Assembly (NCBI RefSeq): GCF_000621645.1
Contig: NZ_JHXR01000030.1
Span: 2,979 to 34,978 of the forward strand
Length of the DNA stretch: 32,000 nt
Source: Vibrio cholerae ATCC 14035
GTDB lineage: Bacteria; Pseudomonadota; Gammaproteobacteria; Enterobacterales; Vibrionaceae
Direction: 5' to 3'
Shown: piece after piece, positions 4,135-32,000 of the stretch
How the letters are laid out: every line of letters begins with the position of its first letter
Numbering within the stretch: the stretch's first letter is position 1
Translations under genes and position numbers: made by a program
The notes under the pieces: model-generated
Databases searched by the model: none
What the model saw: only the letters and a program-made list of their open reading frames with translations
What the model was told of the DNA's origin: nothing

Positions 4135-4715
4135 TTCCACGCATCAAGAACCCTGTTAAGCAGGGGCAGGTAATTATGATTGATGGACGTTATTTCTCTA
4201 ATTTCGGTAAGAAAGGCCAAGTGCTGACCGCTTGGTCTTTGGCTGGTGCTGAGGTCTTTTTAGGTGATCTGGCTCCGGTACTTAAAAAGCTGGATGAGAA
4301 AGGGAAAAAGTACACGGTTCGTCTTGTTGAAGTGCAAGAGCGCTCAGGGCTGACTTTGAAAGATTTCTACCAACTTTCTTACCAGCTCAGACGCATGGTC
4401 ATTAAAGCCGAAGTAATTAGCCCAATTATCGGATGTAGCGAGTTAGCCAGAAAAATCAGCTTATTATCAGCAGCGGTTGTTATGTTGGAAAGAGAGTTTT
4501 CAGACGAGTGTTTGAAAAAAGTAGGTATCAACATTAGTAGCAACTTGTTCAAGTATTCTTACCCGTTGGAATACACACTCGATTGCATTGAGGTAGGGCT
4601 GAAAGACCGACTACTAGTATACAAAGAACACAAAAAAATAGATGCACTTCGCCGCGAACAGTATCTATTGAAAGGTGGTGATCTATGCGTATTTGATGCG
4701 GATGTACCATTTTGA
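4131..4715 (+). CDS. Hypothetical protein (194 aa), AT-rich
   Basis: GGAGG RBS and ATG at 4131. Hand-counted 60-nt lines give about 33-42% GC, against about 57% in the adjacent rep gene. No family recognised. Confidence 0.55.
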   Translation: MIPRIKNPVKQGQVIMIDGRYFSNFGKKGQVLTAWSLAGAEVFLGDLAPVLKKLDEKGKKYTVRLVEVQERSGLTLKDFYQLSYQLRRMVIKAEVISPIIGCSELARKISLLSAAVVMLEREFSDECLKKVGINISSNLFKYSYPLEYTLDCIEVGLKDRLLVYKEHKKIDALRREQYLLKGGDLCVFDADVPF

Positions 4716-7273
4716 ACACCCTAGTGGAACCAACCGAAATCGAGCTGTTCGACTTCCCTTGGCAAGCGCCGCTGTCACCGATTAACTATGACGTGACAGC
4801 GATTGCCGCTGGCCATAAAGTCGCGAACGTTGAACCCGACGACATGAGCGTGATCGAGCGCCGACTTTACGAAGTCGATGCGCTTTCTCACGAGTGGCGC
4901 AAAGCCTTTTTTCAAGACGTGCCGCCATACCTCGCGAAATACTTTGCTGAACGCTACATCCGCACTTATGAGCAAAAGGGCTCGCGAGCGGCGAATACCT
5001 TCCTGCGTGAAAAAATGCGCCCAGCCAAAGAGCGCGTGCTCAAAGTGCTGCAACAATACAAACAACTGCCTAACACACAAAAGGTGGCTTTGCTCAGTGA
5101 AGAATATGAAGACACTGATCAAAGCGACTTTTCACCACTGCCTGAAACCAAACCACAAATGAAGTTTGATTTCGAAGCCGCAGAGAAAAACCGCAAACCA
5201 GTCAAACAGCGCCTGCTTGCTGAATTAGAGCAAGACGAACTGCGCGACATGGCATTCCGCATTGCCAAAATCATGGAAGCCTATTTGCAGCTCACTGCTA
5301 GCCGCAAACACGCCGACAGCGAAGAAGATGTAGACCAAGCGGTTGTTGATGCTTACGAAGCGCTCGCCCACTTCTGCACCAAAACTTTTGGCATTAAAGC
5401 GCCGCGCAAATACAAAGCGCAAAACCACCTTTCAGCGTCCAGCGACATCATGCGCATGATCAGTGATTCGTGGTGGCTTGGCCGCTTAGTCAAAGTGCGC
5501 AAAATCATGCGTGAACACCTCGCCATCGCCATGGGTCAGGTATCAAACAACGCCTCACCTTATGCGAGTTGGGATTGTGTGCGCGAGCACCAAGAGCAGC
5601 AACAACGCAACTATGAAGCCATCAAAAACATGGTGCTGTTCGATGAAGAAACCGAAGAAGAGCACGACCTGTGGGACATGGTCAAAAAGAGCGTTTCTAA
5701 CCCTGCGATTCGCCGCCATGAACTGATGGTGCGCTGCCGTGGCTGTGAAGACATCGGCAACGAGCTGGGTTTGCAAGGCTTGTTCCTCACTCTCACCACG
5801 CCGTCGAAGTACCACAACAGCTACAAAAAAGGCGGCTTTATCGACCACTGGAACGGAGCCAGCCCGCGCGATGCTCAAGCCTACTTAAACAAAAAGTGGC
5901 AGCTGATCCGCGCCAAACTGAACCGTGACGAAATCCGTTGGTTTGGTGTGCGAGTTGCCGAGCCGCATCACGATGGCACGCCACACTGGCATTTGCTGAT
6001 TTGGGTAAGAAAGGAAGACATTTCCGCCGTGCGTGACACCTTCATCACCTACGCGACAGAAGAAGACCGGGGCGAACTGCACCCAGAATTCGAAAAAGAG
6101 AAACAAAAGCCGTTTCGCAAAGTCGTGTATGTGGGGCCGCTTGATTACCGCCCACGCTGTGATTTTGGCTACATCGACCCAACCAAAGGCACGGCCACTG
6201 GTTACATCGCCAAATACATTTCAAAGAACATCGACGGCTACGCGATGGATGGCGACATATCAGACGAAACCGGAAAGCCAGTCAAAGACATGGCACGCAA
6301 CGTCAGCGCATGGAAAAGCCGCTGGAGTATTCGCCAGTTTCAATTCTTCGGTGGTGCGCCTGTGACCACATACCGCGAACTGCGCCGCCTCGCGAACCAG
6401 AATAAAAAAGCCTTCATGGAGTACATTTTCATGCAGGAAAGAGCCGATCTCATCAGCATGTATGAGTTGCTGCACTATCAACTCGTTGGCGCTTACAAGC
6501 CAGCGCGAGTCATGACCAATCAAGAACTGGTCGAAGTGATCGCCAAAAGCTACGAAGCCCGCGCCAAAACAGAGATTCCCCATGTGGCCGCTGTGCTGCG
6601 CTCTGCCGATGAAGGGCGTTGGCATGGTTACATCATGAATCAAGGTGGCCCCTTCGTGAAACGCAAAGAGCTATTAGTTACCAACGTGTATCAAGAGCTG
6701 CCGTTTGCTTCTCCTTACGCCGAAGCCATCCGCAAGTTGGAAGGAATCGCCACACCCGAGCAAGTCATTAAAACCCGTGAAAAGGTTTGGACAATCAAAC
6801 GCAAGGGCAAGGAAACCACAGAAGGTGAAGCGGTGGGTTTTGGGAGCGAAGCGACTGCCTTTGGCGGCTCTGCCGCCTCTCGGAGTTCTGTCAATAACTG
6901 TACGGAGCCATTTACCGGACAGGTCAGCACTCAGCTAACCCGTTTGTTGCAGCCGGACAGGCTAAAAGGATCACAAAACGATCAGATTGTTGATGAAGTC
7001 GCCATCAGCGCCCTGTTTAAAGGCAGCACATTGCGACTCGATGACGAAACAGAACTGAAAATCCGCCCTGCGGAGGTGGATGAACACGGAAAAATCAGGC
7101 CAGCGCGTTTGGTTGAAGTAAAACGCGAGGTCGATAGCGACATTTGGTGCCGCTTCGAAGGCTGGGAGAAGTTCGAACAGCAAATGGAGAAGCTAAACCA
7201 GAAACCACAAGAACATTCACAACCAGACCTATCGTTCTTCCAAGAGTTGGAAGGCGACTGGCCATTAGCGTAG
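4712..7273 (+). CDS. Replication initiation endonuclease, P2 gpA family (HUH rolling-circle)
   Basis: HUH motif AEPHHDGTPHWHLLIW and tyrosine motif GYIAKYISKN. The 853-aa product has a TTG start overlapping the upstream stop (TTGA). Confidence 0.9.
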   Translation: MNTLVEPTEIELFDFPWQAPLSPINYDVTAIAAGHKVANVEPDDMSVIERRLYEVDALSHEWRKAFFQDVPPYLAKYFAERYIRTYEQKGSRAANTFLREKMRPAKERVLKVLQQYKQLPNTQKVALLSEEYEDTDQSDFSPLPETKPQMKFDFEAAEKNRKPVKQRLLAELEQDELRDMAFRIAKIMEAYLQLTASRKHADSEEDVDQAVVDAYEALAHFCTKTFGIKAPRKYKAQNHLSASSDIMRMISDSWWLGRLVKVRKIMREHLAIAMGQVSNNASPYASWDCVREHQEQQQRNYEAIKNMVLFDEETEEEHDLWDMVKKSVSNPAIRRHELMVRCRGCEDIGNELGLQGLFLTLTTPSKYHNSYKKGGFIDHWNGASPRDAQAYLNKKWQLIRAKLNRDEIRWFGVRVAEPHHDGTPHWHLLIWVRKEDISAVRDTFITYATEEDRGELHPEFEKEKQKPFRKVVYVGPLDYRPRCDFGYIDPTKGTATGYIAKYISKNIDGYAMDGDISDETGKPVKDMARNVSAWKSRWSIRQFQFFGGAPVTTYRELRRLANQNKKAFMEYIFMQERADLISMYELLHYQLVGAYKPARVMTNQELVEVIAKSYEARAKTEIPHVAAVLRSADEGRWHGYIMNQGGPFVKRKELLVTNVYQELPFASPYAEAIRKLEGIATPEQVIKTREKVWTIKRKGKETTEGEAVGFGSEATAFGGSAASRSSVNNCTEPFTGQVSTQLTRLLQPDRLKGSQNDQIVDEVAISALFKGSTLRLDDETELKIRPAEVDEHGKIRPARLVEVKREVDSDIWCRFEGWEKFEQQMEKLNQKPQEHSQPDLSFFQELEGDWPLA

Positions 7274-7282
7274 GAGCTAGTT

Positions 7283-7819
7283 ATGAAAAAAGTTAAATCG
7301 CCGGAAGATATGCCATATCGATTACCTAAACCTGTGATTTTCTTTAATTCCACAAGTACAACGATAAGCAGTTTAGTGTCGAGTTCTGGCTATGGTAAGG
7401 AAGCATATCCATGGGCTGAACGTATGCTAGGACGATTCCCCTTGCCTAAATGGCAACGGCAATTAGTTTGGTCTGATGCACAAAAGCTCAGTTTTATAGA
7501 ATCTGTCTTTATGGGATATGACTTAGGCAGCGTCATGATTAATTCATATGAGGATCTAGGAAATGGTTTAACGCGCCCTATGTCAGACATATTGATCGAC
7601 GGGCAGCAACGCATATCAGCACTATTAGCATTTATAAATAACGAATTTGAATATGAGGGGTACTTCTGGAAAAACCTTAATCGCAGAGAACAAAGGAGAT
7701 TTTTAGAACGCGAAATGGGTAAGCGAACGACTGAATGCTATGACGAAAATGAATTAAAAAAAGTCTACAATCACCTTAACTTTTCTGGTGTTCGCCACGA
7801 AATTTCAGAAATGGCTTAA
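7283..7819 (+). CDS. Standalone DUF262 (ParB/Srx-like, GmrSD N-terminal type) protein, 178 aa
   Basis: PLPKWQRQLVW matches the FQR..vW motif and LIDGQQRISALL matches the DGQQR motif. No DUF1524/HNH half is present. AGGAG RBS lies 9 nt after the rep stop. A sampled 60-nt line gives about 33% GC. Confidence 0.75.
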   Translation: MKKVKSPEDMPYRLPKPVIFFNSTSTTISSLVSSSGYGKEAYPWAERMLGRFPLPKWQRQLVWSDAQKLSFIESVFMGYDLGSVMINSYEDLGNGLTRPMSDILIDGQQRISALLAFINNEFEYEGYFWKNLNRREQRRFLEREMGKRTTECYDENELKKVYNHLNFSGVRHEISEMA

Positions 7820-7863
7820 AGGCTATTAACAAATTACCTCAACACAAAGAGAGTACCACCACC

Positions 7864-7889
7864 AAGCGCCTGCGGGCGCTTTGTTGTCT
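7864..7889 (+). terminator. Hairpin terminator between convergent genes
   Basis: AAGCGCC (7864-7870) pairs with GGCGCTT (7875-7881) around a TGCG loop, followed by TGTTGTCT. Confidence 0.5.
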
Positions 7890-7892
7890 CCG

Positions 7893-8231
7893 CTATGCGC
7901 TGCGGCTTTGCGCCGCAATTTCATCATTAATCGACTTAATCAACTCAATCAAACAATCACGAATCGGCGCGGGGAGAGAATCCACCTGCTTGCCTTCTGG
8001 CGAACTCACCGCCCCGTGCATGATCATATGCCCAACTGAAATCTCAAGCGCCGTACTTAAACGCCGAATCTGGGCAATATCCACCACTCGTTCACCCTGT
8101 TCTAACCGCTGCAACATACGCAGCGAAACGCCAGCACGCTCGGCAACCTGCTGCTGAGTTAAGCGCTTACGCAAACGCTCCTGCGTGAAAAACTGCATGA
8201 TGGGATCAATATCGTGAATCGTTTTTGCCAT
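7893..8231 (-). CDS. XRE-family helix-turn-helix regulator (112 aa)
   Basis: ERLRKRLTQQQVAERAGVSLRMLQRLEQGERVVDIAQIRRLSTALEISV is a canonical HTH_3 pattern. GAGG RBS is present. Confidence 0.8.
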   Translation of the reverse strand: MAKTIHDIDPIMQFFTQERLRKRLTQQQVAERAGVSLRMLQRLEQGERVVDIAQIRRLSTALEISVGHMIMHGAVSSPEGKQVDSLPAPIRDCLIELIKSINDEIAAQSRSA

Positions 8232-8411
8232 TCAATAACCTCAGTCGCCAAATATGGCGGATAAAACAAGCCGTTATGCCAACTGAGGTTAGGCAACCAC
8301 AAAAACTGATGTAGGTCGCAACACCGACGAATATTAACTTTTAGAGTACGGCGTCTAATACGCAATAGATTGAGCTATCTATCAGTATAGACAATAAAAC
8401 CAATAAAAAAA

Positions 8412-8446
8412 TTGAGAGCATAAAATCACTGTATTAATATACAGTA
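8412..8446 (+). promoter_or_regulatory. Sigma70-type promoter overlapped by a LexA (SOS) box
   Basis: -35 TTGAGA (8412-8417), 17-bp spacer, -10 TAATAT (8435-8440). The 20-mer CACTGTATTAATATACAGTA (8427-8446) fits CTGT-N8-ACAG with perfect 7-bp arms, close to the TACTG(TA)5CAGTA consensus. Confidence 0.6.
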
Positions 8447-8468
8447 AACGTCAGTAGGAGACAGTCAA

Positions 8469-8714
8469 ATGTCTGAATTAAAACACTTAGGCAATATCAA
8501 TCACTGTGATGTTGCACTATCAGCACTTGAAATAATTCTGGACGGAGTAGCCAGCAGCGAAAGCACGGAGCGAACGAGACAAGCGGGGGCATACCTCGCA
8601 CGGCTCGTCATGGCTGATTCACACGGAAGTTTTGATACAGATAAACAAAAGGCCATTCTCAGCATTATTGAGATGGCCTCAGAAGTCGAAAACCCAAGAT
8701 TTTGCAGCAGTTGA
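8469..8714 (+). CDS. Small acidic protein (81 aa) under the LexA box; candidate Tum/DinI-like SOS antirepressor
   Basis: AGGAG at 8456-8460 and ATG at 8469. The product has the same length as E. coli DinI. Its C-terminal DKQKAILSIIEMASEVE loosely resembles my recollection of DinI EDKQRISEILQETWES. The functional call is inference. Confidence 0.5.
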   Translation: MSELKHLGNINHCDVALSALEIILDGVASSESTERTRQAGAYLARLVMADSHGSFDTDKQKAILSIIEMASEVENPRFCSS

Positions 8715-8966
8715 TCACAACATAGAAAGCTGATGCTTAAGCCGTTGCCGCGCTTCTGGCGGCAACGCTTTACACAAATCAAACGCCAGTTGGCTAGTTG
8801 TTTTTGCAGATGGGCTCAACGTATGGCTGTAAGAAAGGTTCATCACAAACGTGTGGCCGCATTCGGGGTCACAGCACGCACAATACAAATCCGCAACACC
8901 AGCGGTAAAGCGGTTCGTCTTCTGAATTCGGGCTTTACCTTCGCACTCAGGGCAGAACACTCTCAT
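8715..8966 (-). CDS. ogr: Ogr/Delta-family zinc-finger late transcription activator
   Basis: MRVFCPECEGKARIQKTNRFTAGVADLYCACCDPECGHTFVMNLS has the Cys4 pattern and spacing of P2 Ogr. Start taken at the internal Met (8966). Confidence 0.85.
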   Translation of the reverse strand: MRVFCPECEGKARIQKTNRFTAGVADLYCACCDPECGHTFVMNLSYSHTLSPSAKTTSQLAFDLCKALPPEARQRLKHQLSML

Positions 8967-9036
8967 AATAACACCTAGCTTTTTTTTGACTGACGCGATA
9001 ATCATACGTCAATAAGCTGTGTTTTTGTACAGTTTA

Positions 9037-9522
9037 TCAGCTTTCTAGCTGTAGAGGATTCGCGGCTTTACAGAGTTCTTCCCAAGAGTTTGGCACCTTG
9101 CCGCTGTTTAGCATCTTTTCAAACACTGCATAAACGTCAGTCTTTGCTCCTGCTTTACGCTGGGTAGATTCATCATTCATCCATGCATAAATGATGGTTT
9201 TAGGAGCTTGGCTATTAAATTGAAAAAACAACCGATATCTTGGAGGTAAACTCTTTTTCTTTACTCTGCGCCATGATGTGTGCTTTTTGCCAAGTGTAAG
9301 CCCTTGACGAAAATCAGCATGGTCAGGATTGGAAGGAACGGTTTGAGTAATATTACAAAGAACCGCAAGCAATAACTTAGTACTAGGGTGGTCGTAAAAA
9401 TAGATTGGGTCTTTGGCTTGAAGTGTTTCAACTTCTTTTGTTAGATCATCCAGAAGATTTTGGAAGATGGATAGAGCGTGAAGCTCATAACCAGAAAAAA
9501 CGGGAATTTGCTTCGTTTCCAA
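9037..9522 (-). CDS. yhaV: Type II toxin YhaV-family ribonuclease
   Basis: The blocks VETLQAKDP, TKLLLAVL and RYRLFFQFNSQAPKTIIYAWMNDESTQRKAGAKTDVYAVFEKML match remembered E. coli YhaV blocks. A sampled 60-nt line gives about 33% GC. Confidence 0.85.
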   Translation of the reverse strand: METKQIPVFSGYELHALSIFQNLLDDLTKEVETLQAKDPIYFYDHPSTKLLLAVLCNITQTVPSNPDHADFRQGLTLGKKHTSWRRVKKKSLPPRYRLFFQFNSQAPKTIIYAWMNDESTQRKAGAKTDVYAVFEKMLNSGKVPNSWEELCKAANPLQLES

Positions 9523-9525
9523 TCT

Positions 9526-9720
9526 CTATCCTTCCCAACACTCTGCGCGAGCCTTAGCCGCTTCTGCCGCCGCTTTTATGGCGAACATACGATCAAGAAG
9601 AGAAGTAGATAGCGGCTGAACGTTTCCCTCTACTTTTACTTCACGATCAAGTAAGTCGATGAATTTATCTTCAACTTCTCGTTCACGTTTTTTGTCGTGT
9701 AGTGGTATAACTTTGCCCAT
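9526..9720 (-). CDS. Short (64 aa) PrlF C-terminal-like partner of YhaV; no AbrB/SpoVT domain
   Basis: The gene ends 3 nt upstream of the toxin gene's start codon. ATG 9720 is preceded by TAAGGT. DKFIDLLDREVKVEGNVQPLS resembles the PrlF C-terminal segment NAFLRFLDADIQNNPQKTRPF. The family assignment is tentative. Confidence 0.5.
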   Translation of the reverse strand: MGKVIPLHDKKREREVEDKFIDLLDREVKVEGNVQPLSTSLLDRMFAIKAAAEAAKARAECWEG

Positions 9721-9766
9721 TTTATGAACCTTAACTCTTTGCAGCAACGGCTGCGTGATGGGAATT

Positions 9767-9781
9767 TGTACGGTCTGTACA
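9767..9781. promoter_or_regulatory. Palindrome TGTAC-N5-GTACA upstream of the toxin-antitoxin operon
   Basis: TGTACGGTCTGTACA lies about 45 nt upstream of the antitoxin ATG, inside an AT-rich promoter-like stretch. Confidence 0.35.
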
Positions 9782-9830
9782 TGCTGTAAAATATATCATA
9801 AAAATTTTTATAAACAAGTTTGAGGCTGCT

Positions 9831-9860
9831 CCATCGGCAGCTATCGGCGCTCATCGGTTT
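9831..9860 (+). repeat. Three exactly 10-bp-phased YYATCGG repeats
   Basis: CCATCGGCAG CTATCGGCGC TCATCGGTTT. CTATCGG recurs at 9941-9947 and 10161-10167 and is inverted at 10079-10085. Confidence 0.7.
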
Positions 9861-9956
9861 GACTAAAGGGTTATAGATGGTATAGCCTATAAGCGTGTTG
9901 GCAAAATCCAACACCGGGATTAGTACCCCGCATTATTTTTCTATCGGTACACAAGT

Positions 9957-9980
9957 ACCAGCTTTTTGCTGGTTTTTTTG
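9957..9980 (+). terminator. Orphan intrinsic terminator in non-coding DNA
   Basis: ACCAGC (9957-9962) pairs with GCTGGT (9968-9973) around a TTTTT loop, followed by T6. There is no plus-strand ORF upstream of it. Confidence 0.55.
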
Positions 9981-10175
9981 TGTATGGCTTCAGCACATTT
10001 AAACATAGTCGTTTCGTATAGAAACCGTACTATCTGCATTATGGTGGGCTGGGCAGGGGCGCTTCGGCGCGCCGTGTTCCGATAGAGCGGTAGTACTAAC
10101 CTTGTCCAGTTCACCACCCATAGATTAGTACCTTTGAGTGGTGAGTAACTAAAATTTACTCTATCGGAGGTCACT

Positions 10176-10853
10176 ATGACTTCAGTACTGACTTTTCAGG
10201 ACACCCATTTTGATGTAGTTGAACGTAACAATCAGTTGTATCTCGATGCGTACCAAATTGGTACGGCACTAGGTTATAGCGATCCAAGAACTGCTGTACG
10301 TAAAATTTTTAATCGTAACAAAGATGAGTTTTCCAGTGGAATGTCTGAGGTCATCAATTTGATGACCTCAGGAAACTACCAAAAATCCGTACGTATTTTC
10401 TCACTGCGCGGCGCTCACCTCATCGCCATGTTCGCCAGAACGGCCATCGCAAAACAGTTCAGAAAGTGGGTGCTCGATATCCTCGATCAAGAAACCAAAA
10501 CCCAAACCATCATCCCCATTACCACCCCAACGCAAATTCCCAAAGCCAACTGGCCGATCACCTACCAAACCGATTGGAAACCCGCCACCATCACGTTGTT
10601 TGGTAAAACCGCCCACTATGTGCGTTTCGAGCTAAGACCCAAACCATTCAGTTGCGAGTTCAGTGCAAAACACACTCCGCAGGTTTATCAGGCGGTATTC
10701 CATTTCGCTGACCAATACAAAAGACCAAGTATCAGGAATGAAGCCCCAATGATTGGGGATATTGGCTATTTTGAATCAACAAGGCTTGATGACTTATGGG
10801 TACAAGTTATTAACTTTGCGGCAAGGTGCAATAGCCAATGTGCCTTGCTTTAA
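10176..10853 (+). CDS. Bro-N domain protein (antirepressor-like) with an unknown C-terminal domain
   Basis: LTFQDTHFDVVERNNQLYLDAYQIGTALGYSDPRTAVRKIF...IFSLRGAHLIAMFARTAIAKQFRKWVLDIL follows the Bro-N pattern. GGAGG RBS is present. Confidence 0.8.
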   Translation: MTSVLTFQDTHFDVVERNNQLYLDAYQIGTALGYSDPRTAVRKIFNRNKDEFSSGMSEVINLMTSGNYQKSVRIFSLRGAHLIAMFARTAIAKQFRKWVLDILDQETKTQTIIPITTPTQIPKANWPITYQTDWKPATITLFGKTAHYVRFELRPKPFSCEFSAKHTPQVYQAVFHFADQYKRPSIRNEAPMIGDIGYFESTRLDDLWVQVINFAARCNSQCALL

Positions 10854-11887
10854 ACCTCGATGCTCAAATCAAAATTGAAAGACAGTGATTCCGGTATCTC
10901 TGGGTCACTGTTGATTGCATCAGAAAAACGCTTACACACCGGAACCACTTCATACTTGTCATAAACTTGGCTGACTTTGAGTGGGTCTGGTGCTGTTGCG
11001 TCTGTCTGCGGGATCATGCCGCCCATCCCTGCTGGGAAACGATGCCCCACAAAAATATCTTGCGCCGTGATGTTCTTGATCCGCTCAAACTCATCTTTCG
11101 TGGCAATATCGCCCACTGGAATCAGTTGAATGCCTTTCTCTGTCCCGTTCGGGATGTTCACAAACATACTGCGGAAATTACCGATCCCTTTAGAACTGGC
11201 AATCTTCTCTTTGAGTGCCTTTTCATCGTCATCGCTCAAGTTCGGGTCGGTCGCATAGAAAATAAAGCCCATGTGCGCACCGTTCAGGTAATAGCGGCGG
11301 CGAAACAGGGTGGCGTCACGGTTCAATAAACTGCTTTGAATGCTGCCCAAGTAATCAGGCAAGCCGTATATCTGCTGCTGCGGGTCATACTGGGGAATAA
11401 AAATCACATCCTTCGCTTTAAATACCTTTTGCTCGTTGTTACGCAGCAACTGAACAAAGTCCCCGTTCTTACGCTTGCGCATGTGAACCATGGGCAAAGG
11501 TTCAAGAGCGATCACATTCTTCATATAACTGCGTATCTTCACAAATGCTGCCATACCAAGGCCAAAATAATCCCAGCAAGCATTATTCATTTTGTACATA
11601 GGCATGTTGCCACCACTCAGGAAGCGACCAGCCACATAATTGGCCCGCGCTTTCAGCAGTGAACCGTGATACCCGTTCGCGTTGGCAATTTCAGCTAACC
11701 CTTTTAACGAAATAGGCGGCTCCCAGTAATCATCAAACTCGTTGTAAAACAGCTCACAATAACGAGTCATCCAACTGTTTGTATCAACGGGCTCCGGGTT
11801 TGGGTCAAAGCTGTACACAGATTTGCTCTCTGTGCCATCGGTAGTGTGTGAGTGAATAAGTTGCTCTGTCATGCTGCCATCTGCCAT
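10850..11887 (-). CDS. Q: Portal protein, P2 gpQ family
   Basis: The 345-aa gene follows the terminase in a P-then-Q operon. Synteny and length match gpQ. An alternative coupled start at 11872 overlaps the terminase stop (ATGA). Confidence 0.9.
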
Positions 11888-17106: not shown

Positions 17107-17585
17107 GTACGCAATATCAAGCGGGTTACAAGATGAGAGCTTTGAGAAAACACATTGAAGAGTGTGTAGGTGATCAAATCGCTCAAAGGCTTGAGGCTGA
17201 AATGACGGATATCTCGTTGAAGTTATTACCCAAACACATGGGCAATGGCTTCAACTTAATGCAGCAAAAATACAGAGCAGAGTTTTATTTCGACAGATTC
17301 CCGTTCAAGAAATACGACCCTGCGGTGCTATTTGCCAATGTTGGCGCATGGATTCTTGACCATGATCTTGACCGAGCGGAAAGCAATGGGCTGCGTGACC
17401 CAGATATTGATGTAGTTCTTGAAGATGAAAACAGTGCTGAAGTGCTAGTCATCATTGAATTTGAAGAAGATATCAAAATCATCGAATGCGAAAACGGTGG
17501 CATCAAATGGCGTGGGAAAAAATGGAAAATCGCTGAATACGAAATTTGGGTAGCTGAAAACCTGATCGATGTGGTGAACAGATGA
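17103..17585 (+). CDS. Tail completion protein, gpR-like
   Basis: The 160-aa size, the position after gpL and a coupled ATGA start fit gpR. Similarity in block layout to P2 gpR is loose. Confidence 0.5.
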   Translation: MSTQYQAGYKMRALRKHIEECVGDQIAQRLEAEMTDISLKLLPKHMGNGFNLMQQKYRAEFYFDRFPFKKYDPAVLFANVGAWILDHDLDRAESNGLRDPDIDVVLEDENSAEVLVIIEFEEDIKIIECENGGIKWRGKKWKIAEYEIWVAENLIDVVNR

Positions 17586-18238
17586 TAACGATTAGAGCAG
17601 ACAGAGATAGCCAATTAATGCTTATGGAGTCGTTAAAACTCTTAACGTTGCCAGCAAAAAAGAAGAAAGGCTTGCTAGAACAGGCTGCGCTGATTTCACG
17701 CGAAAAATCACGTTCAAATGCTGCTAAGCAGGAAAGCCAAGAGGGAACTGCTTGGAAAGAGAGGAAGCGGCTAAGCGGAAAAAAAAGCCGAAAGAAAATG
17801 CTTCAAGGAATAGCTCGCTTAATGGGGGTTATTAGTGTTGATGAAAAGCGTGCGGTAGTCGGCTGGAAAGTCGGTATGACGTCCAAAATAGCGGCTTATC
17901 ACCACTCTGGTGGCAGCTACAAAATGAGCGCTTCAAAAATCAGGGCGATAAGAGGAAAGCCAGATTACCAAGCTCAAGCAACAAAAGAGCAAGCTAGAGC
18001 TTTAAGAAAAGAAGGGTTTAAGGCTCGGATTAACGGAAGAAAACGTAGGCCAACGAATACATGGGTAATGGAAAACCTGAAACAAGGTCAAGCGGGGTTA
18101 ATTATCCGATTACTAAGAAACTCCAAGCAAGTTAGAAGTTGGGACATAAAGGCAGAAACACGTCAATTTGTACAAGTGGATAGCCCTGAAATTCTTCGAC
18201 TTTACCGTAAAGCAATATCACCAAGCAGGAGCAAATAA
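17582..18238 (+). CDS. Virion morphogenesis / tail completion protein, gpS (Mu G)-like
   Basis: The product is basic. Its position and loose pattern (…QESQEGTAWKERK…KKMLQGIARL…AAYHHSGG) resemble the gpS family. Confidence 0.5.
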   Translation: MITIRADRDSQLMLMESLKLLTLPAKKKKGLLEQAALISREKSRSNAAKQESQEGTAWKERKRLSGKKSRKKMLQGIARLMGVISVDEKRAVVGWKVGMTSKIAAYHHSGGSYKMSASKIRAIRGKPDYQAQATKEQARALRKEGFKARINGRKRRPTNTWVMENLKQGQAGLIIRLLRNSKQVRSWDIKAETRQFVQVDSPEILRLYRKAISPSRSK

Positions 18239-18239
18239 C

Positions 18240-19349
18240 ATGGCATGGCCTACCGTTATTATCAAAATCTTAAACCTGATGAATGGCCCGATTGCCGATA
18301 TCGAGTGCCACTTCCTATTCGTCATTCGCGGCACCGTTTCCGGTGACGTTCGCAACCTAATCATGGTCGATTCAACCTCAGACCTTGACGACGTGTTAGC
18401 CGAAGCCAGCGCCGAAGGGCTTGCCATTGTCAAAGCCGCCCAGCTTAACGGCAAACAGGCATGGACAGCGGGCGTGATGATCCTCAGCGAAGAAGACAAC
18501 TGGCAAGACGCTGTCAAAAAAGCCAATGAAGTCTCTAGCTTCGAATTCGTTGTGCTTGGCTTTGATGCCGAAACCAAAGCCATGATCGAAGATGCCATCA
18601 CCCTGCGCACCGAGCTGAAAAACAGCTTAGGCCGTGAAGTCGGCGTGCTGTGCCAACTGCCCGCCATCAACAACGACCCAGCAAACGGCAAAACATGGGC
18701 AGAGTGGTTAGCCGCCACGGTCGCCATCCCAAAAGATGTGGCGAGTGAATACATTTCCGTTGTGCCGAATGTACATGCAGCAGGTGACACACTCGGCAAG
18801 TACGCTGGCCGTCTCGCGAATAAAGAAGTTTCCATCGCAGATTCACCGGCACGAGTGCAAACCGGAAGCGTGTTGGGTAACACCGAGCTGATGAAAGACA
18901 AAGCCGGAAAAGCCCTAGACCTCGCCACCCTAAAAGCGCTTGAGTCTAACCGCATCGCCGTGCCGATGTGGTACCCAGATTACCCCGGTCAATACTGGAC
19001 AACTGGCCGCACCCTCGATGTGCCAGGTGGTGATTACCAAGATATCCGCCACATTCGTGTCGCGATGAAAGCCGCCCGCAAAGTGCGTATTCGTGCCATT
19101 GCCCGCATTGCCGACCGCACACTCAACTCAACGCCGCAAAGCATCGCCGCTGCAAAGCTCTATTTCACCCAAGATTTGCGCACCATGGCACTCACGGGCG
19201 TGCCGGGGGAAATCTACCCACCAGAGGATGAAGACATCCAAATCAAATGGGTAAACAGCACCGATGTAGAAATCTACATGAGCGTTCAGCCCTACGAATG
19301 CCCGGTGAAAATCACCATCGCTATTTCCGTTAAACAAGGGGATTACTAA
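18240..19349 (+). CDS. Contractile tail sheath protein (HP1/K139-type)
   Basis: The 369-aa gene sits upstream of the tube gene. LESNRIAVPMWYPDYPGQYWTTGRTL parallels P2 FI LNESGVTTLIRRDGFRFWGNRT. Start taken at ATG 18240. Confidence 0.65.
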   Translation: MAWPTVIIKILNLMNGPIADIECHFLFVIRGTVSGDVRNLIMVDSTSDLDDVLAEASAEGLAIVKAAQLNGKQAWTAGVMILSEEDNWQDAVKKANEVSSFEFVVLGFDAETKAMIEDAITLRTELKNSLGREVGVLCQLPAINNDPANGKTWAEWLAATVAIPKDVASEYISVVPNVHAAGDTLGKYAGRLANKEVSIADSPARVQTGSVLGNTELMKDKAGKALDLATLKALESNRIAVPMWYPDYPGQYWTTGRTLDVPGGDYQDIRHIRVAMKAARKVRIRAIARIADRTLNSTPQSIAAAKLYFTQDLRTMALTGVPGEIYPPEDEDIQIKWVNSTDVEIYMSVQPYECPVKITIAISVKQGDY

Positions 19350-25822: not shown

Positions 25823-27657
25823 GCCAGACGGCCATTCCACTGCAGTTTGAAAAGTACCTGCAAAATCAAATCAGTGTCGGCAAAGCGCCAGACATGAACG
25901 AGATGATTTTTGCCTACATCCCAAACCTTGACCCAAGCCAGCCGATTGACCGTAACCAAGGGCTACCAGCCGTATCAACATGGGTGTATCAGCAGGATAT
26001 CGATCAAGAGGGTAAGCTAGGCGACAACGCGCTAGTGTATTCCGTAGTGATCCCAGGTTCAGTGGCCGCGTTTACTTTTAACGCCATCTATCTGCGTGAT
26101 AAAAACGTGCCCAACTCCTGCGGCATAGTCGTACACAAAGCCACTGAAACCAAAGAAGCGGGCATGGCAAGCACCAAAAGCCTAATGCAGCAATACACAG
26201 GGGCCGCGCAAATTGCAGGCATTACGGTAGATGCGCAAACGTGGCAAATCGACTACCAAGCGCGTTTGTTGGGTATTGAAGATGATATGCGCCTCGTGAA
26301 CTTGGATAACTACGGGCACACCGCATTCATTCAAGGCTTTGATGTCACCCAGCAAGCAGACCCAGCCAAATACAAAGTAGCACCGGGTGTGGTGTACGTT
26401 GGCGGCTTACGCGCCGAACTAAAAAACGAAGTCATTCAAACCATCAGCGACAAGCCTACGGGGTTATATATTGATGTTGCTCGCACGGGTACCGTGTTAT
26501 CAAAGTGGCAGAACATCGTCACCATTCGAGCTTCCGAGACACAGCTCACCGACTACATTGACCAAAACCAGCAGCAACACTACGTTGCAAGGCTGGCGGG
26601 GATTAATGCGAATGGGAGTATCACAGATTGGCGTGTAAAAACAGACAACGCCGATCAAGAGTGGTCGCCATTTATTAACTACGGCATCGGCCACGAAGTC
26701 GTTCGCAATGGCTTGCGCTATATCGCCAGATTGGCGTCAGGGCCGGATAATGGTGGGGCGATTACTCCTTCTGCATCGATCACAAACATTGAAATATGGG
26801 ATATGGTCATCCCTCAATCATTTGCTATAAATCTCGTTGCATGGGTGAAAATTGCTAGCATATCAAAAACTTTAAGGGAGCCTGTTTATTTGACGATTTC
26901 TGGTGGTTCACCAGATAATAGCGCATTACTTTTTGTTGCAGACATCGTTTTCGGTGTAAATAGTATTGGTATTCCTTCGGCATCAATCGGAGCTAAATAT
27001 CAGACTCTAACCGATCCAAAATTTTACATTAGAGATGATGATGATGAAGACTCCTTTTCTCTGTGGGTAAACCGTCAAACCCCTGGACAAACGCAGTATA
27101 CTATCACGATGCGTAGCCGCCCTCGTTTTTCCCAGACGTTAGTTGGTGTGCTAGAAAAGGCGGCTACGCAACCAAGTTTTACGACCTTAGTACCCTACGA
27201 CACAGGCTACCAATTCGCCTCTATTCCAATCGGCATGGAAGTGGCGTTTGACACGCCGCCGCCAACCAATGACCCGCGATTTCGCTTTGTTAAACTGACG
27301 TATAACGATGCTTACAACACGGGTTTGCTAACATCACAAACGCTTTCTGGTAGTGCGCCAGAGTTGGTTTCAACGGCGGTAATTTCAGCAGCGAAAAGCC
27401 CTATCAATGGGCAGACTATTTATCTTAAGAACACAATGGGGGTATATGCAGTGCCAGCCACAACGGAAGGAATAATTGCACAAAACATACCTCAACCAGC
27501 AAGGTACAGAATAGACAGTATAAGTCATGGGGTTAGCTTGCAAACTGGCCCAAGTATCTCTGGATTCATCATAACTAGTGCAGCTTCCGAATCTCAGATT
27601 ACTGGTGGTTTAAAACCCCGCAGTTTTGGTGAAGTCTTATACAAGAGGATTTACTAA
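25819..27657 (+). CDS. Tail fibre protein (gpH-like N-terminus, mosaic C-terminus)
   Basis: The N-terminal tail-collar-type region (MIFAYIPNLDPSQPIDRNQGLP...VIPGSVAAFTFNAIYLRD) parallels the P2 gpH N-terminus. The distal part changes composition. Confidence 0.8.
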   Translation: MSQTAIPLQFEKYLQNQISVGKAPDMNEMIFAYIPNLDPSQPIDRNQGLPAVSTWVYQQDIDQEGKLGDNALVYSVVIPGSVAAFTFNAIYLRDKNVPNSCGIVVHKATETKEAGMASTKSLMQQYTGAAQIAGITVDAQTWQIDYQARLLGIEDDMRLVNLDNYGHTAFIQGFDVTQQADPAKYKVAPGVVYVGGLRAELKNEVIQTISDKPTGLYIDVARTGTVLSKWQNIVTIRASETQLTDYIDQNQQQHYVARLAGINANGSITDWRVKTDNADQEWSPFINYGIGHEVVRNGLRYIARLASGPDNGGAITPSASITNIEIWDMVIPQSFAINLVAWVKIASISKTLREPVYLTISGGSPDNSALLFVADIVFGVNSIGIPSASIGAKYQTLTDPKFYIRDDDDEDSFSLWVNRQTPGQTQYTITMRSRPRFSQTLVGVLEKAATQPSFTTLVPYDTGYQFASIPIGMEVAFDTPPPTNDPRFRFVKLTYNDAYNTGLLTSQTLSGSAPELVSTAVISAAKSPINGQTIYLKNTMGVYAVPATTEGIIAQNIPQPARYRIDSISHGVSLQTGPSISGFIITSAASESQITGGLKPRSFGEVLYKRIY

Positions 27658-31183: not shown

Positions 31184-31212
31184 AACGCAGCCTAACCGCT
31201 GCGTTTCTTTTT
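31184..31212 (+). terminator. Intrinsic terminator ending the late tail operon
   Basis: AACGCAGC (31184-31191) pairs with GCTGCGTT (31198-31205) around a CTAACC loop, followed by TCTTTTT. Confidence 0.65.
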
Positions 31213-31512
31213 GCATGCAACGCATCACTTAACAGCACAACACCCCACCCAAGCCACACCCAAGCGCATACAGCCACGTAATCGACCCTTTGACCCACGG
31301 AATCCGCGCTCCTCTACACCCGCCCGCGCGGTTTTTGGATCACTTTTTTTGAAATTTTGGTTTAGCGAAAAACGCCACACACCATCGAAATGGCAATAAA
31401 CCGCAAAACCTTATGCAGCAAGGGGGCTGGACGATACCGCAAGCCGTCGAAAGTGCCTTAAAACCACCTTTTTAAAATTTCGAAAATTGAAATTTTTTTC
31501 AGTTAATTGCAA

Positions 31513-31623
31513 AAATGACGATCAGAAATGATCATGTGATTTTTATTAAGTGATTGAAACATATGAAGCTTTGACGGATTCCGTCACGGTTTTAATGATC
31601 AGTCGCCAGCAAATGACGATCAG
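31513..31623 (+). repeat. Four direct AATGA(CG)TCAG-type repeats
   Basis: AAATGACGATCAG occurs at 31513-31525 and 31611-31623. The shorter variants AAATGATCATG (31526-31536) and AATGATCAG (31594-31602) share the same orientation. Confidence 0.7.
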
Positions 31624-31799
31624 TTGATAGGCTAGCAAAGCCAAGCACAGCAAGGGATAGAGAGGATTTGACAGCAAAAACAGTTTTTCAATTTTTTACA
31701 TGGGTTGAATAGGGTAGTGATAAAGAAAAAAGTGGTTACGAAGAGGTGAAGAAAAGCGGGATTTTTTCAGATAGGTATGGAGTTTTCTCTGTCATGAAG

Positions 31800-31837
31800 T
31801 GGCGGCAAAAATGGCGGCGTTGGTCGGTTTTGGTCGG
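31800..31837 (+). repeat. Phased TGGCGGC x2 and TTGGTCGG x2 direct repeats
   Basis: TGGCGGC occurs at 31800 and 31812. TTGGTCGG occurs at 31820 and 31830. Spacing is 10-12 bp. Confidence 0.7.
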
Positions 31838-32000
31838 TATTTATAGGTGTAAAACCTCAATTTTAGCTGCTTATTTAAACAATGGTTTGTTGTTATTTAT
31901 ATGATTTTAAATGATTTTTATAGTTTTGTTCTATGTTCTACGGCATGTCATCGAAGAGCGCGATGGACAAGCATTCTGGCGGTGTAGCAGGTTACCGTGC

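Follow-up and report, generated by a model that had tools for sequence, protein, structure and literature searches.

The rep-to-portal slot of a K139-family Vibrio cholerae prophage: a probable regulatory core between two pockets of exchangeable cargo

Genes and boundaries of the slot

We examined the segment that separates the replication gene (rep) from the portal gene in a prophage of Vibrio cholerae ATCC 14035. This segment, hereafter the slot, occupies positions 7283-10853 of a window of 32,000 nucleotides (nt), which is the whole stretch of DNA that was analysed (contig NZ_JHXR01000030.1, positions 2,979 to 34,978 of the forward strand). The window represents a K139-family (P2-like, Peduoviridae) V. 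cholerae prophage in its O395 variant. The slot and its boundaries hold the following features, with seven slot open reading frames (ORFs) lying on both strands and protein lengths given in amino acids (aa):

4712-7273, plus strand: replication protein of the GPA family, left boundary (Pfam Phage_GPA, 3.3e-128; 95-100% identity to K139/O395 rep)
7283-7819, plus strand: ORF10, a 178-aa mini-DUF262 protein, ParB/Srx-fold NTPase-like (PF03235 GmrSD_N/DUF262, 1.3e-16)
7864-7881, plus strand: terminator-like hairpin that would end the rep-ORF10 transcript ('T10' in the K139 annotation)
7893-8231, minus strand: ORF11, an XRE-family helix-turn-helix (HTH) regulator, divergent from ORF12 (Pfam HTH_3, 1.7e-09)
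8469-8714, plus strand: ORF12, an 81-aa acidic protein (phrog_5581)
8715-8966, minus strand: ORF13, an Ogr/Delta zinc-finger late-gene activator (PF04606, 6.5e-15)
9037-9522, minus strand: ORF14a, a YhaV-family toxin of the RelE/ParE superfamily of mRNA interferases (PF11663, 2e-42, 145 bits against a cut-off of 35)
9526-9720, minus strand: ORF14b, a 64-aa putative antitoxin (GenBank start)
10176-10853, plus strand: ORF14c, an Ant-type protein with a Bro-N domain (residues 1-109), a linker and a C-terminal domain (125-225) (Bro-N, 6.7e-12; phrog_5060 'anti-repressor Ant', 1e-79)
10850-11887, minus strand: portal protein, gpQ homologue, right boundary (Phage_portal, 5e-08, below the gathering score; K139 Q annotation)

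The genes that a preliminary description of this DNA had named on both strands are borne out by the ORF list, and their domains are backed by Pfam. The start of ORF13 is placed at 8966 in GenBank, with the longest ORF extending to 9005, and the 3' end of the portal gene overlaps ORF14c by 4 nt. Window positions 7000-11000 match GenBank record AY147036 with 99.8% identity over 93% of the length, and the title of that record reads 'Bacteriophage O395 ORF10, ORF11, ORF12, ORF13, ORF14a, ORF14b, ORF14c'. The phages K139, Kappa, VcP032, 919TP and VPUSM8 are 99.1% identical to the same segment up to window position 9039, where their similarity ends. In GenBank the slot genes are labelled merely as hypothetical proteins or 'putative phage regulator'. 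The GenBank records AY147031/34/36 represent alternative slot contents. According to GenBank entries, the K139 slot carries ORF10-13 followed by a 71-aa orf14, the Ch457 slot contains ORF14d/e and lacks ORF10/11, and in the E8498 slot ORF10a replaces ORF10/11. The slot sequence is already public, and the variability of the region has been on record in 2002-era GenBank entries.

The GC content is 43.7% in the slot and 48.7% in the whole window, and the slot is the lowest-GC stretch of 3.57 kb in the 32 kb, with none of 569 sliding windows lower. The low GC content noted in the preliminary description stands for the slot as a whole, with a weaker contrast than given there; its estimate of about 33% for the DUF262 and YhaV genes was too low, the actual values being 38.9% for ORF10 and 40.7% for ORF14a. 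ORF11, at 51.3%, has a core-like composition.

Variation among related slots

We fetched 160 related loci using the portal protein as the anchor, half of them (80) from a set with a single genome for each species and the other 80 from IMG/VR; L-numbers such as L005 and L086 are labels of fetched loci. The slot was measured wherever rep and portal were both located, which was the case in 109 of the 160 loci. In these, slot length ranges from 828 to 8233 bp (median 2600), and clustering of the 689 slot ORFs with 45 aa or more gave 336 clusters. Four clusters recur widely, and all others are sporadic. The Ogr cluster is present in 88 of the 109 slots, and tblastn places Ogr in 158 of the 160 loci, adjoining the portal gene. 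ORF12-like proteins occur in 54 slots, ORF11-like HTH proteins in 31 at the same place, and a second small-protein family takes the ORF12 position in 23. Thus ogr, which had been described as the sole obvious core gene of the segment, shares wide recurrence with the ORF12-like and ORF11-like genes.

Because Ogr is found in nearly all loci and ORF12 and ORF11 are widespread, while ORF10, the YhaV pair and ORF14c each occur in few loci, we interpret the slot as a conserved regulatory core with two flanking pockets in which cargo is exchanged, one on the rep side and one on the portal side, rather than as one functional unit. We assign this interpretation a probability of roughly 0.75, the roles proposed below for the individual genes being inferred. 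The three sporadic items can be found in either pocket. Among V. cholerae-type phages whose Rep proteins are 94-99% identical, contents change on both flanks of the ORF11-ORF12-ORF13 block. Directly after rep, these close relatives carry ORF10, a C5 methylase with a 97-aa gene, runs of small genes, or a cassette encoding proteins of 264 aa and 133 aa. On the portal side they carry orf14, the YhaV pair with C4-Ant (a module described below), C4-Ant with a 167-aa gene, or other genes. The presence/absence polymorphism in relatives for which the preliminary description had suggested an alignment is therefore pronounced, in the length range, in the number of clusters and in the cargo swaps between nearly identical backbones.

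The old/tin hotspot of phage P2 lies between gpA and gpQ, and more than one-third of the systems cloned from such hotspots were active (Rousset et al., 2022; PMC9122126). For K139-like phages, the hotspot flagged in the same study is cI-int, a different site (PMC9122126). The equivalence of the present slot to the P2 tin/old slot, proposed in the preliminary description, holds: a GPA-type rep lies on the left and the portal gene on the right, as in P2 (PMC9122126), so that the K139-type slot occupies the same position in a P2-like phage. Both slots also show a great variety of gene arrangements, with defence-type genes in some relatives. Given the range of slot lengths, the 336 clusters and the defence-type genes in relatives, the analogy with P2 is sound, and the rep-portal slot is a genuine gene-swapping hotspot. 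It differs from the P2 hotspot in being split into two pockets by the core genes ORF11, ORF12 and Ogr, and in having no validated defence system among the cargo of the window. In P2, ogr is located elsewhere, outside the gpA-gpQ slot. A further difference is that adjacency to cos is uncertain for the K139-type slot, as the ends of K139 are reported to be terminally redundant, unlike those of PV94 (PMC3986222). The P2-type rep-portal hotspot thus extends to Vibrio K139-like phages, as a second hotspot beside the reported cI-int one.

When 92 cargo representatives of at least 150 aa were compared with PADLOC and Pfam, the majority had no match. The matches comprised C5 methylases (4), CAP12/Pycsar TIR effectors (2), putAbiC, SLATT_4, HicB, DUF2971, GNATs and an ISL3 transposase. 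In the Aeromonas relatives L048 (11446-12147) and L060 (11603-13042), the CAP12/Pycsar-type TIR-domain effectors lie directly beside Ogr. Hundreds of uncharacterised cargo families in these slots could be screened.

ORF11, ORF12 and Ogr as a conserved core

Three further features lie upstream of ORF12 and ORF13:

8412-8444, plus strand: ORF12 promoter, a good sigma-70 match, with -35 TTGAGA at 8412-8417 and -10 TAATAT at 8435-8440 at a 17-nt spacing (sequence reading)
8429-8444, no strand assigned: perfect LexA box CTGTATTAATATACAG, overlapping the -10 of the ORF12 promoter (exact CTGT-N8-ACAG match)
9017-9032, no strand assigned: second exact LexA-type box CTGTGTTTTTGTACAG at the ORF13 promoter, covering its -35 or lying immediately upstream of it (exact CTGT-N8-ACAG match)

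These two are the only exact CTGT-N8-ACAG boxes in the window, both inside the slot, and mononucleotide shuffles of the window contain 0.43 exact boxes on average. In the related loci, an exact box is found 16-40 nt upstream of 66 of the 68 ORF12 homologues and about 64 nt upstream of 75 of the 158 Ogr homologues (L006-L165), against a background frequency of 0.083 per kb. The CTGT and ACAG ends are constant across loci, and the interiors of the boxes vary. The LexA-controlled small protein of the preliminary description is well founded in this respect, with a perfect box that is kept in almost all homologues. Overall, ORF11, ORF12 and ORF13 appear to be a conserved, LexA-wired regulatory core rather than cargo: their conservation can be read from the loci directly, and their function would be as follows.

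Because of its apparent LexA control, we infer that ORF12 is an SOS-induced antirepressor. DNA damage would remove LexA, ORF12 would then be made and act as an antirepressor, and Ogr would be released simultaneously with ORF12 upon the loss of LexA. The second box suggests that the late activator Ogr is under direct SOS/LexA control in K139-like phages; ORF13 resembles the known Ogr/Delta late activators in its Ogr_Delta zinc-finger domain. The cI gene lies outside the window. ORF12 itself has no Pfam, NCBIfam or PDB-sequence match and no recognisable domain, and its homologues are confined to Vibrio K139-like phages. Our literature search found nothing specific on K139 with LexA or an antirepressor, and no report of a LexA-type box upstream of Ogr in K139-like phages.

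Small proteins that might be compared with ORF12 are known from other phages. In coliphage 186, Tum is a LexA-controlled antirepressor. The Gifsy antirepressors GfoA/GfhA are also LexA-controlled (Lemire et al., 2011; PMC3121763), and the induction modules composed of a transcription factor and a small ORF (TF-smORF) have been described as SOS-independent (Silpe et al., 2023; PMC10432266). ORF12 resembles these systems in being a small-protein gene with a LexA box over its promoter, and in its location in a non-essential region after rep, divergent from an XRE-type transcription factor. It differs in having no sequence similarity to any of them and, with respect to the SOS-independent TF-smORF modules, in the LexA box of its module.

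A perfect 12-nt inverted repeat brackets the Ogr gene (8723-8734 and 9036-9047), and its right arm coincides with the end of K139 similarity at about 9039. We set this repeat aside, as chance alone would give about 0.4 pairs of this kind in 3.7 kb, so that it may be a coincidence.

A C4 antisense RNA-Ant module on the portal side

The portal-side pocket contains two modules, the YhaV pair and, between it and the portal gene, ORF14c with its leader region. The preliminary description had treated positions 9748-10175 (428 bp) as an empty spacer; they hold an isrK-like leader and a C4 antisense RNA, with the following features:

9832-9886, plus strand: C4-ant operon promoter, with -35 TTGACT at 9859-9864 and -10 TATAGC at 9881-9886 (sequence reading)
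9882-9978, plus strand: isrK-like leader with b1 at 9918-9926 and a1 at 9940-9947 (Rfam isrK RF01394, 9895-9978, 61.4 bits against a gathering score of 50)
10037-10121, plus strand: C4 antisense RNA, with loop a' (hairpin 2) at 10076-10086 and single-stranded b' at 10092-10099 (Rfam RF01695, 71.5 bits against 45, E 4e-13)
10123-10170, plus strand: C4 targets on the ant mRNA, b2 at 10123-10131 and a2 at 10159-10168 (complementarity; repeat search)

Together with c4-a1b1, the C4 and isrK matches are the only Rfam matches in the whole window. The leader contains an intrinsic terminator (9957-9973 plus a T run), and a2 overlaps the Shine-Dalgarno sequence GGAGG (10166-10170) of ORF14c. The a'/b' segments are complementary both to a1/b1 and to a2/b2, and this three-way complementarity is perfect in the window, where the cognate duplexes reach -20.5 kcal/mol on the target at the ribosome-binding site (RBS) and -20.0 kcal/mol on the leader target. 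The TTGAC of the C4-ant promoter is conserved in 9 of 9 aligned modules. Upstream of the -35 (window 9832-9857) are three direct repeats with an exact 10-nt period, CATCGG at 9832, TATCGG at 9842 and CATCGG at 9852, which may be an operator. Sister modules have different triple repeats at the same site, for example TCAATAT in L141, L160 and L134.

In the nine aligned modules, all cells of the 26 base pairs of the C4 stems are standard pairs, and three pairs show compensatory change. The a'/b' segments co-vary with a1/b1 and a2/b2, giving at least seven specificities among the nine modules. Cognate duplexes range from -16 to -25 kcal/mol, and non-cognate ones average about -9 kcal/mol. On the leader targets, cognate duplexes come out as the most stable throughout; on the RBS targets there is one exception, the L086 row, where the L086 C4 scores -17.0 kcal/mol on the L005 target and -16.1 kcal/mol on its own. 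At the level of sequence, complementarity and co-variation together establish the pairing of C4 with its targets. With a covariance model derived from these modules, C4 was detected in the window and in 12 of the 160 loci, and its position is nearly always slot-side of the portal gene. Elsewhere, the leader and C4 precede Ant genes of the Bro-N type or the Rha type that share the C-terminal domain of ORF14c.

The AlphaFold2 (AF2) model of ORF14c consists of the Bro-N domain, a disordered linker and an alpha/beta C-terminal domain, and its full-length homologues are found in Vibrio alone, at 88-89% identity. ORF14c appears to be an antirepressor-type gene in a C4-controlled module of the P1 immI type, which the preliminary description had missed. 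In such a module, transcription from the C4-ant promoter would produce a leader that carries the decoy sites a1/b1 and a terminator, that is, an isrK-like short RNA, and read-through of the terminator would produce the C4 RNA. The a'/b' segments of C4 would pair with a2/b2 on the same mRNA, where a2 covers the ant Shine-Dalgarno sequence, and would thereby keep Ant untranslated in the lysogen. Where C4 is scarce, or is titrated by the short leader acting presumably as a C4 decoy, for example upon entry into a new cell, Ant would be made and could inactivate a resident repressor. Both the antirepressor activity of Ant and the identity of a repressor as its target are suggested by analogy. Because K139 manages without the C4-Ant module, Ant may not act on the phage's own CI.

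One close parallel is immI of P1 and P7 (c4-icd-ant; RF01695, RF03163), which has the same C4 fold, with a'/b' complementary to an upstream a1/b1 and a downstream a2/b2, a downstream target that overlaps the RBS ahead of the antirepressor gene (a putative one here), and allelic specificities, as between P1 and P7. It differs in that here a2 lies over the Shine-Dalgarno sequence of ant itself, with no icd-like ORF, that the Ant protein combines Bro-N with a Vibrio-only C-terminal domain and is of the Rha type in sister modules, and that the module is mobile cargo of a P2-like phage and not part of a P1-type plasmid prophage. In the Gifsy-1 isrK-orf45-anrP operon, the short terminated IsrK RNA relieves a translational block in trans via orf45 (Hershko-Shalev et al., 2016; PMC4825925). 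The leader described here likewise matches isrK (RF01394) and has an intrinsic terminator that must be read through to reach the putative antirepressor gene, and in both cases the mRNA would be translationally silent by default; the difference is that no equivalent of orf45 is seen here and that a separate C4 RNA is recognisable. A C4-Ant type module with at least seven co-evolving specificities would decide which phages override each other's immunity.

Decayed copies of the module are present in two related loci. In L082 (13583-13713 and the downstream ORF) the isrK-like leader is present but C4 is missing, and the Rha-type Ant is truncated; L094 (12535-12858) retains the C-terminal half of an ORF14c homologue alone.

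ORF10, a standalone DUF262 protein

ORF10, the cargo of the rep-side pocket, starts 9 nt past the rep stop codon and has its own Shine-Dalgarno sequence and no promoter of its own. It appears to be transcribed as the tail of the CI-repressed early rep operon. All 57 close homologues are 161-202 aa long, with PF03235 as their sole domain. A profile search of 1.84 billion representatives returned 210 matches at E<=1e-30 and 2039 at E<=1e-10; among the best 150, about 80% do not exceed 215 aa, and in most of them the match extends to the end of the protein. We also considered ORF10 as a truncated GmrSD-like gene, which we rejected, as the close homologues are uniformly short, most of the best profile matches are short as well, and there is no downstream remnant.

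Invariant in the family are QR, DGQQR and a C-terminal NF.G..H motif. The AF2 model of ORF10 has a predicted local distance difference test score (pLDDT) of 94.6, and the nearest PDB folds are the CTPase domains of ParB, Noc and PadC and the N-domains of SspE and BrxU, all weak matches with E of about 0.01-0.1 and template modelling (TM) scores of about 0.4. In PADLOC, ORF10 matches positions 69-195 of the 385 of the NsnA profile, and no other Menshen-system match is found in the slot. ORF10 thus shares with GmrSD, BrxU, SspE and Menshen NsnA a DUF262 ParB/Srx-like domain with QR and DGQQR, and its predicted structure resembles the SspE and BrxU N-domains and the ParB CTPases. Unlike GmrSD, BrxU and SspE, it stops directly behind the DUF262 core and has no nuclease domain of the DUF1524/HNH type, and unlike Menshen it has no NsnB/NsnC partners. 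In contrast to the type IV DUF262 enzymes, the ORF10 family is a large one of standalone proteins of about 170 aa from temperate and virulent phages and conjugative elements.

The genomic contexts of the family are mobile elements, and in seven of them no conserved partner or neighbouring nuclease gene was found. One is a region with ParB_N, RadC, DUF3560 and DinI; another is on a conjugative plasmid, close to topoisomerase III and TraI; a third is a site beside DUF4942 and a C5 methylase. With tblastn, relatives of ORF10 were detected in 231 phage records, including virulent (T4-like) and jumbo phages; examples are CcrColossus gp265 (174 aa) and ORF187 of E. coli phage Phi1 (172 aa), located in the vicinity of alt and two genes behind a DNA methylase. 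ORF10 homologues are often near DNA methylases, and in sister phages an orphan C5 methylase occupies the ORF10 position. A Photobacterium leiognathi element with a P7-type C1 repressor (L176, a P7-C1-type plasmid prophage) carries two mini-DUF262 paralogues, at 4137-4682 (181 aa) and 6001-6534 (177 aa), 1.3 kb apart.

In view of its place at the end of the early rep operon, and of homologues carried by virulent phages and by conjugative elements, ORF10 is most likely made early for the phage's own benefit and not for a restriction activity that protects the lysogen; it would serve the infecting phage in DNA handling or counter-defence. A more specific proposal is that ORF10 represents a large uncharacterised family of early counter-defence or establishment factors of phages, conjugative plasmids and integrative and conjugative elements (ICEs), which we consider unlikely in this full form. 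It is possible that such a protein poisons or decoys host DUF262-type type IV restriction, BrxU or SspE enzymes, or, alternatively, that together with orphan methylases it acts on the modification status of DNA. Standalone DUF262 proteins are widespread and offer a tractable target.

The YhaV toxin pair

The second module of the portal-side pocket is encoded on the minus strand by ORF14b and ORF14a, with one additional feature:

9767-9817, minus strand: putative toxin-antitoxin promoter, with -35 at 9812-9817 and -10 at 9790-9795 (sequence reading)

ORF14a is 41% identical to a plasmid YhaV-family toxin (1e-36). The stop codon of ORF14b is separated from the TTG start of the toxin gene by 3 nt, and a GGAAGGA Shine-Dalgarno sequence precedes that start. 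The palindrome TGTACAGACCGTACA (TGTAC-N5-GTACA) at 9767-9781 is a putative operator. The two genes recur together in two more phages, L029 and L042, there in the rep-side pocket. A tblastn search of 50,697 phage records with ORF14a returned AY147036 as the sole match, and toxins of this type are common on plasmids and rare in phages. No solved YhaV structure was found by sequence search, and our literature search found no report of anti-phage activity of YhaV.

The identity of ORF14b as PrlF was examined and rejected, as ORF14b has no Pfam, NCBIfam or PDB-sequence match and BLASTP against an annotated PrlF gave no alignment. Of the YhaV toxin pair named in the preliminary description, the toxin is therefore confirmed as a member of the YhaV family, and its partner is not PrlF-like. 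The arrangement resembles E. coli PrlF-YhaV in the toxin family and in the small upstream gene that abuts the toxin gene, and differs from it in that ORF14b has no AbrB/PrlF domain or similarity to PrlF. ORF14a/b are probably an ordinary type II toxin-antitoxin pair with a swapped, non-PrlF antitoxin. Such a pair would stabilise the prophage, and it might cause abortive infection upon loss of the antitoxin.

Regulation, defence or decay

Some observations speak against the interpretation of the slot as a regulatory core between two cargo pockets, or against parts of it. The box on the Ogr side (CTGTGTTTTTGTACAG) is a weaker LexA site and is missing upstream of about half of the Ogr homologues, and its persistence could be due in part to shared ancestry. 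In the C4-Ant module, the c4-a1b1 match (RF03163, 9882-9934) scores 38 bits, below the gathering score of 46.7, the C-terminal domain of ORF14c has no significant PDB fold match, an icd-like coupling ORF such as that of P1 is lacking, and K139 itself is without the module. ORF14b has no detectable DNA-binding or antitoxin domain in Pfam, NCBIfam, PADLOC or PDB sequences. In addition, position, domains and analogy are the basis of the roles given above to ORF12, Ant, ORF10 and the toxin-antitoxin pair.

The preliminary description regarded the slot as the likeliest place in the window for an undescribed defence or counter-defence module, and the island could indeed be the anti-phage defence locus of the phage, with at least one of ORF10, the YhaV pair and C4-Ant acting as an undescribed system that protects the lysogen. 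Its position equals that of the P2 old/tin hotspot, with the share of active cloned systems mentioned above (PMC9122126), its cargo turns over rapidly, and the slots of relatives hold TIR/Pycsar-type effectors, putAbiC, SLATT, HicAB and a HEPN-like two-gene cassette; toxin-antitoxin pairs are frequent in abortive infection, and the domain of ORF10 is common to GmrSD, BrxU, SspE and Menshen NsnA. However, PADLOC gave domain-level matches alone and no system-level match for the seven slot proteins, to which NCBIfam added nothing, so that the search suggested for each ORF identified no known defence system in the slot. ORF10, which seems to belong to a CI-repressed early operon and is related to proteins of virulent phages, lacks an effector domain and a conserved partner, the C4-Ant module is one of regulatory immunity, and the literature search on YhaV gave no anti-phage role. 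We therefore consider a defence locus possible but doubtful, and the cargo of the window does not bear out an undescribed defence module, as the slot consists of a core, an antirepressor module and a toxin-antitoxin pair of known kinds. In a cargo mostly of such kinds ORF10 is the exception, and the counter-defence option of the preliminary description may apply to it. A related proposal for ORF10, that it supplies the sensor for a split type IV (GmrSD/BrxU-like) restriction system whose nuclease is host-encoded and whose target is modified phage DNA, would agree with its intact DUF262 QR and DGQQR motifs, with a fold similar to the SspE and BrxU N-domains, and with the DUF262-type systems encoded by V. 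cholerae lineages. It is distinctly unlikely given that DUF1524/HNH is present in none of the 57 close homologues, that there is no room for it in about 80% of the best 150 profile matches, that the seven contexts show no conserved neighbouring nuclease, and that virulent phages, both T4-like and jumbo, carry the family, which suggests that it serves the phage and not the host.

The two-pocket interpretation also has to be weighed against readings in which part or all of the slot has no accessory function. The C4/isrK-Ant unit might be a decaying, non-working remnant gained by recombination, and the leader without C4 and truncated Ant of L082, together with the ORF14c fragment of L094, demonstrate that decay does happen in this slot, as the absence of the module from K139 might also suggest. 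In the window, by contrast, the promoter, a1/b1, the terminator, C4, b2/a2, the Shine-Dalgarno sequence and the full-length ORF are all intact, the three-way complementarity is perfect, the co-variation over at least seven specificities implies selection on the pairing, and ORF14c is 88-89% identical to its full-length homologues, which makes a remnant very unlikely. A reading of the segment as an ordinary, conserved part of the phage core, not accessory in any way, would fit the wide conservation of ORF11, ORF12 and ORF13 and the core-like GC content of ORF11. It is almost certainly wrong, being already refuted by the tenfold range of slot lengths, the 336 ORF clusters and cargo that differs at 94-99% Rep identity, and the slot is moreover the lowest-GC stretch of the window.

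It follows that a hotspot slot should not be read as defence by default, as half of the one described here appears to be a conserved, SOS-wired induction core. Epidemic V. cholerae commonly carries K139/Kappa prophages, and differences between their slots may affect induction, superinfection and strain typing. What makes the slot interesting, in our view, is mainly the DUF262 family, the finding that ORF12 and Ogr both appear to be controlled by LexA, and the untested cargo catalogue of the relatives.

Recurrent cassettes and other low-GC stretches

A rep-side two-gene cassette on the strand opposite to rep was observed in L093 (12271-13456), L094 (13116-14322), L160 (13272-14469) and L134 (13406-14586), encoding proteins of about 260 aa and 133-147 aa. 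The 133-147-aa protein occurs in nine loci and has a HEPN-like R..(x)..H motif (RRSAISRYYYAMYH), and the cassette is a candidate toxin-antitoxin or defence pair. Another recurrent cassette, present in six loci (e.g., L103 13058-14086 and L141 12850-13873), encodes a 66-71-aa protein followed by a predicted membrane protein of about 270 aa. Elsewhere in the prophage of the window, further low-GC stretches (38-44%) are located at 31200-32000, 17200-18400 and 26600-27200.

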